Part shown: positions 984-35,099 of the stretch, one piece after another
How the letters are laid out: each line of letters begins with the position of its first letter
Position numbering within the stretch: the first letter of the stretch is position 1
NCBI GenBank assembly: GCA_964392445.1
Contig: CAYMPD010000009.1
Location: forward strand, 1 to 35,099
Direction of reading: 5' to 3'
Source of the DNA: an uncultured archaeon
Lineage (GTDB): Archaea > Aenigmatarchaeota > Aenigmatarchaeia > CG10238-14
DNA length: 35,099 nt
Notes under the pieces: generated by a model
Told to the model about the DNA's origin: nothing
Seen by the model: the letters and a program-made list of their open reading frames with translations, nothing else
Database searches by the model: none
Program-made: the position numbers and the translations under genes

Positions 984-1037
984 TCCATAGGAAATATAGG
1001 TTAAATCTCCATTTGAAACTCCACTGGAAACGGGGGG
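984..1037 (+). promoter_or_regulatory. Cluster of three mini-ORB-like boxes (TCCA-N3-GAAA), the last followed by a G6 string
   Basis: TCCATAGGAAAT (984), TCCATTTGAAAC (1008), TCCACTGGAAAC-GGGGGG (1020); matches the archaeal Orc1/Cdc6 origin recognition box pattern. Confidence 0.65.
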
Positions 1038-1072
1038 AGTTAAATTCCTGTACAGCTATCTTAACAGGCTGT

Positions 1073-1414
1073 TTATCGGTAAGAAATAAAATCAATCATG
1101 TCCTCCGGTGTGATCCTTTTGTTGAATTTTTGATTGACAACTTGTGCCCATCTTTCAGCTGTCTCCGGATTCTGAACAATAAAATTCTCTGCTTTTCTCA
1201 CAAACTTCCTGGGAACTCCAATAAATTTATTTTTCAATTGTTTTTCCTTTTCATGTTTTTTTATAATTTCCACATCGTCAATCGCCTGTGCCAATGCGTT
1301 CCTGCACACTTCTGAAACGTTAAACATTCTTTTCGCTTTTTCAAGAACTCGGCTTTCTACATTTATCGTAGTAGTAGTCAGATTATCAAATTCCTTCGGT
1401 CTTCCAGCTCCCAT
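1073..1414 (-). CDS. RHH (CcdA/CopG-like) DNA-binding protein
   Basis: GRPK motif followed by TTTINVESRVLEKAKRMFNVSEVCRNAL; GGTGA RBS upstream. Confidence 0.7.
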   Translation of the reverse strand: MGAGRPKEFDNLTTTTINVESRVLEKAKRMFNVSEVCRNALAQAIDDVEIIKKHEKEKQLKNKFIGVPRKFVRKAENFIVQNPETAERWAQVVNQKFNKRITPEDMIDFISYR

Positions 1415-1486
1415 ATAATCACCTAATATAATTAATTAATATGTATATATATAATTAATTAAGAGTTAGTTGTTAGTTAGTAGAAA

Positions 1487-1508
1487 TCTCCAGTGGAAAT
1501 CAAGGGGT
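1487..1508 (+). promoter_or_regulatory. Full-length ORB-like element
   Basis: TCTCCAGTGGAAATCAAGGGGT has both the TCCA-N3-GAAA core and the G-string; next to an almost pure A/T tract at about 1423-1462. Confidence 0.7.
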
Positions 1509-1661
1509 GAGAAGAAAAAGGCCGAGACCACCCATAAACCATTTTTATTTTCTAAGAAGAGACGCTGTAGTAGAAGTCTGCATTTGAAATGAAGGTCCCG
1601 AGCCGACTGAATTTTCACCGAGCGTAAGCGAGGGGAATATGAAGGAGGCGAGGGAATAAAA

Positions 1662-3859: not shown

Positions 3860-5392
3860 ATGAATATTAAAGCATCCCAGATAGCAGGAGATATAATAGA
3901 TATGATAATTCAAGAAGATAGACCTCTGAAGCATAAATTTATTTTTATTTCTCTGTTAGAGAAATATCCAAATGAGAAAAAATCCGATATCACTTATTGT
4001 GTAAATAATGCTAGCAAATTTAATTCTAATTTGAAAATTTATAAATCTCCTCTGAAGGATCAATACATCTACTACATCGATAAATTCTCATCCGACGCAG
4101 CAAAGGAATTTAGAAAAATTAAGGATGAATACTATGATAAGAAAGCATCTGAAACTGAAACTGAATATTACAGGAAGATGTTTAAATCAAAAGTTTGGGG
4201 TACTCTGATTGCAATTAAAGGAAAAAATTTTTATGGAATTGTTAAAGAGGGTCAGATGAAGCAAGTTATTAGTTCTAGACTATTATCCTTGTTAGTAAAT
4301 GGAATAGTATCTTACATTCCAGTGTGGATTTTCACTGATAGGTTTTGGGATTTATTATCTGAGTACCGCAAAGATATACCGCAAGAAGCAAAAAATTTAG
4401 AAGAACAATTATACCAACTATCGAACGAATTAAGTTCATTAAATAAATTGATTCATGATGGAAAAATAACATGGGTAGAATACCATCGATTGGAGAATGA
4501 ATTGTTAGAAAGAACTAAAGAGATATGGGAAATAAGGTCAGATATTCTAACTGATTTTTTCGACAACTCAGATAAGAAGTATAACCAAATCGCTGGATAT
4601 CTTAAATTTTCTGGGCAGTTTGTAGTTATAAGTTTAGAATTTCCTGATAGTAAAAATAAAATAAAATTATGTATAAGAAAAAACTTATTAGATGAATTCT
4701 TCAGAGGACACAGGAGGAATGTTCCTGTTAATTTCGTAGAAGAATACGAACCTATATCTACCACAAAGAAAGTAATGAAAAAACAAACTAAAAAAGCAGA
4801 GGAGATTCTATCTCAATTAAGAGAGCAAAGAGAAAAGTTGAAGAAACTTGATTTGGAATATAATCATATCAAAGAACCTGAACGTAAGATAGAACAGTGG
4901 GAAGATAAATTAACTAAATTAATGTTCCTAGATAATAAAGAAGTTGTTAAAGAATTTTCAAAAGTTATTACAAAATTAAAAAACAGAATTGTAGAATATA
5001 AGAAACTTATTAAAGCAGAAGAGGAACTTGGATTTGAGGAACAAGTAGCACGCCATCAGACAAGATTGAATAATAGTAAAAAAGAACTCGAAGAGCTAGA
5101 ACATCTCTGGAATAATTGGCAATTATCTGAGGTTAATCCTGCGTATATAGATTATTTAACAGTTGAATTTTTAAAAAGCCACACGTCAATACCGTTGAGA
5201 ATTGAACAACTCAAAAGGCAAATAGATCAGGCAAAAACACAGATAAAAGAATCACCTAATTTAGAAAAGGAATATAAACAAGAGAAAAGTCATATTGAGA
5301 GAAAAATAGAAATTCTGAATAGTGAATATGAAAAGGTAGAAAAGGCTAGAGAAAAATCCAGAAAAATTTTGAGGAGATTCAATGACGATTAA
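3860..5392 (+). CDS. Hypothetical 510-aa protein with long C-terminal coiled coil
   Basis: Long ORF; K/E/L heptad-rich second half; no Walker A motif seen; AT-rich codons. Confidence 0.8.
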   Translation: MNIKASQIAGDIIDMIIQEDRPLKHKFIFISLLEKYPNEKKSDITYCVNNASKFNSNLKIYKSPLKDQYIYYIDKFSSDAAKEFRKIKDEYYDKKASETETEYYRKMFKSKVWGTLIAIKGKNFYGIVKEGQMKQVISSRLLSLLVNGIVSYIPVWIFTDRFWDLLSEYRKDIPQEAKNLEEQLYQLSNELSSLNKLIHDGKITWVEYHRLENELLERTKEIWEIRSDILTDFFDNSDKKYNQIAGYLKFSGQFVVISLEFPDSKNKIKLCIRKNLLDEFFRGHRRNVPVNFVEEYEPISTTKKVMKKQTKKAEEILSQLREQREKLKKLDLEYNHIKEPERKIEQWEDKLTKLMFLDNKEVVKEFSKVITKLKNRIVEYKKLIKAEEELGFEEQVARHQTRLNNSKKELEELEHLWNNWQLSEVNPAYIDYLTVEFLKSHTSIPLRIEQLKRQIDQAKTQIKESPNLEKEYKQEKSHIERKIEILNSEYEKVEKAREKSRKILRRFNDD

Positions 5393-30932: not shown

Positions 30933-32387
30933 TTAACGGAAAAGGGGTTTATGGCGCTTTACAAATACTTTCTCCCGAACATTGGGTCTCTTCTTAATTA
31001 CCGTTTTAAGGACTGGCTCTCTCTTTTTTCTTAATTTTGCGTCAGCCTGGAGTGCTAAAGCGATTGACCAGAAAGATTCTCCGTGCCCATCCTTTGATTC
31101 CACTGCATCTAAATTAGAATCCACTGCCATAATCTGGGATATTAATCTGTCGTCGTTTGGAAGAACTATTCTGTTTTCAGTTACAATTCTGTCGAAGTTA
31201 GCCGCCCATTTGAATTTAGATCTGGAAGTAAATTTAACTGGTTTGAGTATTCTGCTTAAGAGTCCCTGTTCTTCAAACCCCTCGAATTCCCCTCTTGTAG
31301 CGTCATACCATCCGTAATTAATATTGAAGCAATCAATGATGTCATTCAGTTTATGGACCTGCATTTTGTATTCTGTTTTATCCATGAACTCATGATAGAC
31401 TGTTGTCCATCTGTTATCATCTTTTAACTCAAATACTATTGCGTGGGTAGGATGTACTTTTTTTCCGACATCAACCCCGATTGTTCGGATGTTATCATTT
31501 GCTGCATAATGTTGTTGGACTAAATCGGAATCTACACACTTCATTATTCTTTCCCTTTTGAACCAAGAGAATTCTTCACTGAATGGTTTGCATAAATATT
31601 CCTGATTAAATATTCTAGTTCCACGTTCTTGTTTTCTCTTGATTAACTCCTCCCAGGGCATGTGTTCTTTCCAAAGAACTTCCTTATTAACAAAATTTGT
31701 TATAGCAGGTAATTCAAGAACTTCGAACCTAGACATGATATTATCATCGAAGAAAAAGTCCTTGTTTGTTTGAGGAGTACCAACCACATGAAGAAATCCG
31801 TTCTTGCTGGGCATATCCATAATCTGGGTAACAAAAATTCTATTTATTTTTTTCACTTTGACTGGGTCCAGTTTATTTTCTGGGTCTTGAAATGGGTCAT
31901 CTACATAGACTCCCGCACAATGAATTCCTCTTTTGAAAGCGAGCATACCATGAGGTTTTAAGATATATTCATTGGGATCCCCAGTCCAGGAATATTTGAT
32001 TATACTTTCCGCACGTTTTTTTAAGTCTTCAAGGCTAGCAAACCAGGGATTAAGAGATAATAAGTCTTTTAATTTTCTCAAGTGGTACGCCGCCATGTTT
32101 CTTTCATAAGAAAAATAATGACATTCTATACTACCCTTTCCTCTGAATCTCCACATAAGCCAAGCAAAATGAGCGTACAGACTAGTAGATTTAAAATGGT
32201 CTTTAGCACTGATACGAGCCGTTTTAGGATTTTTTTCAAGAAAGTCACAAGTCTTTTTGACATGTTCCCCGCCTACGAATGGTTTAAAACTTTCTGAGAA
32301 TATATTTTCAACGAAAAACCAGAAAGATTTTTGTGCCTTGCGGTCATACTCAAGTTGCTGTTTTCTTGACAACTCGTTCGGGTTCAT
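30933..32387 (-). CDS. terL: Terminase large subunit
   Basis: N-terminal ATPase (SAKDHFKST Walker A variant, VYVDDP Walker B, VVGTP motif III), FNQEYLC linker, C-terminal RNase H-like nuclease (IGVDVG, YDAT). Confidence 0.92.
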   Translation of the reverse strand: MNPNELSRKQQLEYDRKAQKSFWFFVENIFSESFKPFVGGEHVKKTCDFLEKNPKTARISAKDHFKSTSLYAHFAWLMWRFRGKGSIECHYFSYERNMAAYHLRKLKDLLSLNPWFASLEDLKKRAESIIKYSWTGDPNEYILKPHGMLAFKRGIHCAGVYVDDPFQDPENKLDPVKVKKINRIFVTQIMDMPSKNGFLHVVGTPQTNKDFFFDDNIMSRFEVLELPAITNFVNKEVLWKEHMPWEELIKRKQERGTRIFNQEYLCKPFSEEFSWFKRERIMKCVDSDLVQQHYAANDNIRTIGVDVGKKVHPTHAIVFELKDDNRWTTVYHEFMDKTEYKMQVHKLNDIIDCFNINYGWYDATRGEFEGFEEQGLLSRILKPVKFTSRSKFKWAANFDRIVTENRIVLPNDDRLISQIMAVDSNLDAVESKDGHGESFWSIALALQADAKLRKKREPVLKTVIKKRPNVREKVFVKRHKPLFR

Positions 32388-34998: not shown

Positions 34999-35099
34999 AT
35001 GACCATTGAAATTCGCCCTGTTGGAATCTATCCAACTAAACATGGCATGGTGGATCGGAACCAGAAAACCTTAAAGAACTTTACCCGGAAACCCAGGAA
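34999..35099 (+). CDS. 5' fragment of a divergent gene (MTIEIRPVGIYPTKHGMVDRNQK...), truncated by the window
   Basis: GAGGTGA RBS just upstream; frame open to the window end; TATA-like tracts at about 34955-34980. Confidence 0.6.
   Translation, partial: MTIEIRPVGIYPTKHGMVDRNQKTLKNFTRKPR

Follow-up and report, generated by a model that had tools for sequence, protein, structure and literature searches.

Boxes and genes at the left end of a viral contig

The window analysed here is the whole stretch of 35,099 nt, which forms bases 1–35099 of C9, a 41,710-nt contig in a 1.2-Mb bin of 54 contigs. Near its left end lie three leftward genes on the minus strand (267–722, 1073–1414 and 1662–1949), and the regions between them hold five copies of an ORB-like box, an AT-rich tract and a duplicated remnant of a gene end. 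Exact TCCA-N3-GAAA cores start at 984, 1008, 1020 and 1489, and TGCATTTGAAA, which starts at 1579, is a copy of the box core with one mismatch. All five are on the plus strand, exactly where an earlier note on this DNA had placed them (984–1589, plus strand). ORFs that overlap the boxes (931–1095, 971–1315 and 1466–1672) were judged implausible; the real genes are the three leftward ones, and all five boxes are intergenic.

The boxes differ in form. The first (984–1003, plus strand) has an exact core with an ATAGGTT tail, belongs to the class found upstream of host ftsZ and sits at the edge of the duplicated remnant (918–980). The next two form a tandem double box, 12 nt from start to start, which resembles the doubles upstream of host ftsZ (11–12 nt). 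Its first half, TCTCCA-N3-GAAA, spans 1006–1018 (plus strand), and its second half, at 1020–1040 (plus strand), has an exact core and an immediate run of six G. Because this G run lies 3 nt nearer to the core than in host ORBs, and is therefore out of register, the 1020 box falls short of a full ORB in the profile scans. A full ORB, with a dyad core and GGGGTGAG in the host register, occupies 1486–1513 (plus strand). A degenerate direct copy of this ORB and its 5′ flank follows 90 nt downstream (1568–1598, plus strand); within it, 1568–1595 is 82% identical to 1478–1505, with one mismatch in the core. G runs accordingly follow two boxes, those at 1020 and 1489, as the earlier note had reported, and are lacking at 984, 1008 and 1579. 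The 12-bp phasing that it described for the first three boxes was also recovered, with measured spacings of 24 and 12 nt.

No inverted ORB partner had been found from the letters alone, and our scans confirmed its absence. On both strands of 700–2800, there was no minus-strand box beyond the palindromic echo of the 1489 box and a single one-mismatch box, and no minus-strand match to the ORB profile of at least 8 bits occurred within 10 kb of the boxes. The one-mismatch box (717–727) was rejected as an inverted partner; it lies over a start codon, and about two such boxes per strand are expected there by chance.

The window contains nine core matches against 2.5 expected, and none of 100 shuffled sequences reached nine. 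In 2000 first-order Markov simulations, at least four same-strand cores within 620 nt never arose, and at least three arose once, so that enrichment over shuffled sequence was borne out. Across the 1.2-Mb bin, just one other site has at least three cores per kb, and it belongs to the host (C4 76276–76330).

A probably complete virus in an Aenigmatarchaeota bin

The bin has a completeness of 94.9% and contains an archaeal 16S gene, and its Orc1 is 66–80% identical to the Orc1 proteins of other Candidatus Aenigmatarchaeota MAGs; from these sequences, we assign it to a DPANN archaeon of the Aenigmatarchaeota. C9 encodes an HK97-type capsid protein, a portal, a large terminase, a 1493-aa ligase fusion and a PolB-exo-like exonuclease, with a 164-aa PolX-like protein to the right of the window, and no host genes were found on the whole contig. 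C9 is wholly viral, the genome of a tailed virus, and probably complete. A 100-N scaffold gap in the contig is flanked by identical 55-mers (window 35045–35099 and the first 55 nt after the gap), which indicates that no sequence is missing there. In addition, the first 16 nt of the window recur 5 nt from the right end of C9 and occur nowhere else in the bin. This recurrence makes it probable that C9 is a complete genome of about 41.5 kb, either circular or permuted, and suggests that a closed or permuted molecule was broken within a G-rich repeat. Probably closed on itself, C9 has its own right end to the left of the window; a look to the left for orc1/cdc6, as proposed in the earlier note, therefore leads to that right end, where no orc1 is present.

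The stretch is present as assembled contigs in four microbial-mat samples of one study, with no RNA data set listed among its sources. Contigs from three further samples, all of the same strain, carry the box regions unchanged, so that variation there is uninformative. In 1081–1264, the 3′ part of the RHH gene, a second-sample contig differs at 16 of 184 positions; the same mat system therefore also contains another strain of this virus. Querying IMG/VR with the capsid protein returned nothing closer than relatives at 32% identity, and among 371 genomes of the class the capsid protein had one relative (33–39% identity). The parts examined of the distant capsid relatives' contigs contained no ORB, and a search for the exact ORB pattern in IMG/VR gave no match.

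The viral ORB matches those of the host origin

The host encodes Orc1 and MCM. Its orc1 gene lies on contig C3 (22957–24165, minus strand), and the product of a paralogous Orc1/Cdc6 gene (C1 48430–49476) is 32% identical. The host oriC, upstream of orc1, consists of two inverted ORBs that flank about 130 nt of AT-rich sequence, with the dyad ends pointing inward to this sequence and the G-strings pointing outward. That the viral boxes might simply be the host chromosomal origin beside a provirus was excluded, given that C9 is viral throughout and that the host oriC is on another contig, next to orc1.

Several other features of the host loci recur among relatives. The string of orc1, a 344-aa gene and polB is bracketed by ORBs, with the inverted pair upstream of orc1 and a tandem direct pair beyond polB (C3 19056–19144); the members of the direct pair are 58–61 nt apart and are kept in most family genomes. 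A palindrome, TATAACA-NN-GTTATA, lies at about C3 24265–24285, inside the presumed unwinding element, and is conserved in five of five genus genomes. The Orc1/Cdc6 paralogue is found in most family genomes; the gap in front of its gene is short and lacks ORBs, and a tRNA-like sequence follows the gene.

Viral 1486–1513 equals the orc1-proximal ORB of the host at 21 of 28 positions, in the same register. When we scanned both strands of the bin (2.4 million positions) for the viral 28-mer by Hamming distance, the three best host matches were at C3 19142, 24249 and 19084, all within about 5 kb of orc1. A PWM built from relatives only (13 ORBs upstream of orc1 in ten other genomes) gave five outliers in the bin: host C3 24251 (34.8 bits), 24385 (32.0 bits) and 19086 (26.9 bits), viral 1484 (26.3 bits) and host 19144 (23.0 bits). 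The next match reached 17.5 bits. Under this profile, trained on other genomes, the viral ORB was indistinguishable from the four host ORBs. The ORB/mini-ORB identity proposed in the earlier note was thereby borne out, with the viral ORB scoring as the host's own do (26.3 versus 23.0–34.8 bits).

We also ran a sequence-only Infernal model of ORBs, R1, over 23 whole family genomes. The viral ORB scored 21.5 bits (E = 3e-4 per genome; E = 5.6e-5 in 212 kb). R1 matches in the 23 genomes fell on the orc1 contig, either upstream of orc1 or in the tandem pair about 5 kb away beyond polB, and the sole match of at least 20 bits on a contig without orc1 was the viral site. At 47 DPANN orc1 loci, every R1 match lay upstream of orc1. 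The 41.5-kb virus has exactly one R1 match, 1486–1513.

Next to the viral ORB lies the AT-rich tract (1424–1462), a candidate unwinding element that also forms the TATA region of the RHH promoter. It had been described as A/T-only at about 1423–1462; its AT-richness stands (38 of 39 positions, tied for the most AT-rich 40-mer of the 41.7-kb contig), but it is not pure, having a G at 1443. The dyad end of the viral ORB faces the tract from 23 nt away, which is the polarity of both host oriC ORBs. Comparison with the host oriC therefore gave agreement in sequence, in register and in polarity toward the AT stretch. The tract is situated 10–48 nt upstream of the RHH gene's ATG at 1414, which is preceded by GGTGA; as part of the promoter and Shine-Dalgarno region of the RHH gene, its AT composition needs no origin as an explanation.

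Candidate regulators around the boxes

The RHH-like protein (113 aa) is encoded between the two box groups (1073–1414, minus strand), from a promoter that overlaps the AT tract. Three homologues with 55–63% identity were found among 5.8 billion proteins, all on contigs of about 1 kb, and they share a conserved N-terminal beta-alpha-alpha pattern; Pfam matches were sub-threshold only. No homologue was found in the host, and querying IMG/VR and JGI metagenome contigs with the protein returned nothing. Each of the three leftward genes has its own AT-rich promoter and encodes a small protein with an RHH-like N terminus, and the 151-aa product of 267–722 ends in a Cys/His zinc-ribbon-like C terminus. 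Together, they are likely to form an early control module. The sequence at 918–980, directly left of the first box, is a remnant duplicate of the 3′ end of gene 267–722: it repeats 291–353 directly over 63 nt with 90% identity, and its encoded residues match the C terminus of the 151-aa protein. The remnant opens a dubious 60-aa ORF (771–953). The repeat probably marks a boundary of recombination or module exchange.

Given that the box region encodes RHH-like proteins, the boxes might instead be operators for a protein other than Orc1, either one of the viral RHH-like proteins or a host regulator of ftsZ, in which case the virus would share, or compete for, a division-control site. Tandem direct boxes spaced 11–12 nt from start to start are typical of RHH-bound sites, and this spacing is found both at ftsZ and in the viral 1008/1020 pair. 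However, the core is the pan-archaeal ORB dyad, 1486–1513 is a complete oriC-type ORB, and the viral RHH protein has no host homologue. A separate repeat family also suits viral regulators better. Paired GAGCGAG/CGAGCGA motifs, 22–24 nt apart around a short palindromic spacer, occur on the plus strand at 818–848, 1996–2026, about 2163–2183 and C9 37715–37745, and 7 of the 43 GAGCGAG copies in the bin are on C9. These virus-specific pairs are better candidate operators for viral regulators than the boxes are, and we consider it distinctly unlikely that the boxes serve a protein other than Orc1.

A second box class shared with host promoters

Apart from the viral boxes, the cores cluster in just one place in the bin, upstream of host ftsZ (C4 76273–76349). 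Four direct boxes are organized there as two units of about 33 nt, each with a pair of tandem boxes followed by an AAAGGT(T) tail. At least 15 family genomes have this array 220–300 nt upstream of ftsZ, including genomes with a different upstream neighbour, and none of the order-level relatives sampled showed it. One possibility is that the array couples division to the start of replication; another is that it is a second origin. At 20 of 21 family loci, a near-identical box with an inverted copy is placed after the TATA box of orc1 and before its start codon, and this pair, within the roughly 70 nt in front of the gene, resembles an autoregulation site.

We built a 20-nt profile of this class (second box plus tail) using only the ftsZ-upstream boxes of other genomes. 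Viral 984–1003 was its top match in the bin at 25.8 bits, with host ftsZ boxes at 24.5 and 21.3 bits and the background at 17.9 bits or less; viral 1579–1598 ranked sixth (16.1 bits). The 984–1003 sequence fits the class TCCA-N3-GAAA(T), with an A-rich spacer and GGT(T). A profile of the full 34-nt host ftsZ unit had no match on the virus, where the 1008/1020 tandem is spaced at 12 nt. Judged by these profiles, the virus carries both host box classes, the oriC ORB type and the ftsZ/orc1-promoter type. Because the second class is family-specific, it gives independent support to the host assignment made by binning.

It is extremely improbable that the boxes are a functionless chance cluster, or the debris of a duplication or of captured host DNA. 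In favour of debris, the 984 box abuts the 918–980 remnant, and part of its core aligns with the coding sequence of gene 267–722. Captured host DNA was rejected as the source of the boxes, because there is no extended homology to the host genome outside them. Chance is contradicted by the 2000 simulations, in which no such cluster appeared, by two independent profiles from other genomes that rank the viral boxes above all background in 1.2 Mb, and by the identity of the box regions in contigs of the three further samples, although these are of the same strain.

The presence of two host box classes on the virus lends more weight to a regulatory reading, in which the boxes are control sites and host Orc1/Cdc6, or either paralogue, would switch early viral promoters according to replication or cell-cycle state. 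Consistent with this, the 984 box heads the bin-wide ranking for a family-specific class that is conserved upstream of ftsZ whatever its neighbour, and of which a close variant stands between the TATA box and the ATG of orc1. On the virus itself, the ORB at 1486–1513 precedes the RHH gene's TATA-like tract by 24–90 nt on the upstream side, and the three leftward genes encode small proteins that resemble DNA-binding regulators. By contrast, the oriC-type GGGGTGAG tail occurs strongly only on the orc1 contig, at the orc1–polB locus, across 23 family genomes. The orientation of the viral ORB to the RHH promoter is opposite to that of the host boxes at ftsZ and orc1, yet it fits origin polarity toward the AT tract. 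The viral boxes point away from the leftward genes beside them, whereas the host tandem boxes read toward the regulated gene. Control sites would also leave the virus in need of a replication start, and none is visible otherwise. Control of early promoters as the explanation of the boxes is therefore possible but somewhat unlikely; a regulatory or sensing role nevertheless has real weight, and it need not exclude a role as an origin.

The virus encodes no recognizable initiator

Models of Cdc6_C, MCM and tyrosine integrase matched other contigs only, with none on C9, and Pfam and PHROG scans of 49 C9 ORFs revealed no primase, helicase, replicative polymerase or Rep protein. A Walker A motif was absent from every ORF of at least 50 aa on the joined C9. 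The earlier observation that the window lacks orc1, MCM, primase and replicative polymerase genes thus extends, on profile and Walker A scans, to the whole contig. The large terminase (30933–32387) is itself without a canonical Walker A motif, and PHROG profiles still recognize the gene. A 510-aa protein of helical, coiled-coil character (3860–5392), or several small proteins without an assignable function, may be an unrecognized viral initiator. The predicted structure of the 510-aa protein (pLDDT 47.6) was too poor for a fold search, and a search of the ESM Atlas with it yielded no usable match.

Compositional signals did not help to place an origin. GC skew on the virus tracks gene orientation and is uninformative on this point, and on host contigs C3 and C4 it showed no usable turn. 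A scan of the virus for sigma-70 and terminator consensus sequences, which do not apply to archaea, gave matches at chance level.

A candidate origin dependent on host Orc1/Cdc6

Host-type boxes beside an AT-rich stretch, on a virus without an initiator gene, argue that the virus probably borrows host Orc1/Cdc6. Our best explanation is that the viral boxes form a replication origin dependent on host Orc1/Cdc6, to which we give an even chance. This reading draws on the cellular role of ORBs (PMC4010727, PMC4640148), the sequence match to host boxes, the way the ORB faces the AT tract and the lack of recognizable replication genes on the virus. The earlier note had proposed that the element mimics a host origin to recruit host Orc1 and MCM, or that it titrates or senses Orc1. 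Its premise stands, in that Orc1/Cdc6-type boxes of the host are carried by a virus without an initiator; any mimicry would be incomplete, as the layout is not the canonical ORB–DUE–ORB.

In the proposed mechanism, host Orc1/Cdc6 would bind the viral boxes, its ATP form would bring in host MCM at the AT tract, and the viral genome would then be copied by the host replisome. Opening may be aided by transcription that runs leftward from the promoter in this tract, and the shared direction of the boxes may make helicase loading asymmetric. The boxes may also couple early promoters to Orc1 occupancy, as the host seemingly does at orc1 and ftsZ.

Several observations speak against an origin. There is a single full ORB with no inverted partner, and all boxes are direct, whereas in cellular origins of the lineage the unwinding element is flanked by an inverted pair. 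The G run of the 1020 box is out of register. Furthermore, the class to which the 984 and 1579 boxes belong sits in the host at promoters (orc1 and ftsZ) and not at the unwinding element. The site of a viral origin could also be one of the other non-coding stretches, 1950–2742 or the contig junction.

A broader proposal would combine replication with control. Orc1/Cdc6 boxes would constitute a cell-cycle regulon of the host family, made up of the oriC ORBs, the inverted pair in the orc1 promoter and the four-box ftsZ array, that ties initiation to division; the virus would have copied both classes and would rely on the host initiator for its replication as well as for the timing or sensing of its early gene expression. 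We advance this as a doubtful, tentative extension.

The boxes could also act as a decoy, with multicopy viral DNA soaking up Orc1/Cdc6 and depressing the firing of the host origin. Being direct, clustered and without an inverted pair, they resemble the host tandem ORB pair beyond polB, and in haloarchaea a downstream ORB cluster has been proposed to act as a negative regulator (PMC4010727). However, one strong and four weak sites per genome make a small sink, and a decoy leaves viral replication unexplained, which renders this account very improbable.

Relation to known replication systems

Binding of Cdc6/Orc1 to ORBs and mini-ORBs, also across species in vitro, is established (PMC4640148, PMC4010727), and archaeal origins have been described as replicator–initiator pairs, each beside its own Orc1/Cdc6 gene (PMC4010727). 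With a cellular oriC1-type origin (PMC4010727, PMC4640148), the virus shares the box, the G-string register of its host, the polarity toward an AT tract and the accompanying mini-ORBs. It differs in having no adjacent initiator gene, one full ORB where the cellular origin has an inverted pair, and boxes that are all direct. The downstream ORB cluster of Haloarcula hispanica, a proposed negative regulator (PMC4010727), also consists of direct ORBs away from the unwinding element and may be compared with the host tandem pair beyond polB. Its function and lineage differ from those of the viral boxes, which adjoin an AT tract.

Among the papers searched, none described host-type ORBs in an archaeal virus without an initiator. 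Some haloarchaeal viruses carry their own orc1/cdc6 beside ORBs. Archaeal extrachromosomal elements, haloarchaeal plasmids among them, likewise pair ORBs with an orc1/cdc6 of their own (PMC4010727), and what they have in common with the virus described here is an ORB-type cis element on a mobile replicon. In contrast to these replicator–initiator pairs, this virus has no Cdc6_C, AAA+ or Walker A protein and would depend on a chromosomal initiator; with no viral initiator and a chromosomal one needed, the pairing rule would be broken. In a preprint on Aeropyrum globular virus 1, ORBs were looked for and none were found (10.1101/2021.04.21.440749). What is new here, as far as the sequences indicate, is a matched virus–host pair with family-wide specificity controls, and a second box class common to the virus and to the host ftsZ and orc1 promoters.

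If the origin reading is correct, a virus with only the cis half of the pair, matched to the boxes of its host, would represent a testable case of initiator hijacking in archaea. The boxes also offer a sequence-based way of linking uncultured viruses to hosts, the second class being specific to the host family, and they are defined probes for a first biochemical test of Orc1 binding in DPANN archaea. In the host itself, the box classes point to a possible link between Orc1 and ftsZ.

Outside archaea, the P1 oriR, pSC101 and F origins carry DnaA boxes, and most such origins also need a protein of the element, such as RepA; the latent origin oriP of Epstein–Barr virus also needs EBNA1. At oriP, the cellular ORC and MCM are used (PMC3095595). 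The logic of DnaA-box plasmids and phages and of oriP is the same as the one that we propose here, in that a mobile element copies the binding site of the host initiator so that the host replicates it. The virus differs from them in its initiator and in the domain of life, and no partner resembling RepA or EBNA1 was identified on it. Should host Orc1/Cdc6 indeed act at its boxes, the virus would be an archaeal counterpart of the DnaA-box plasmids and phages of bacteria and of oriP in human cells.
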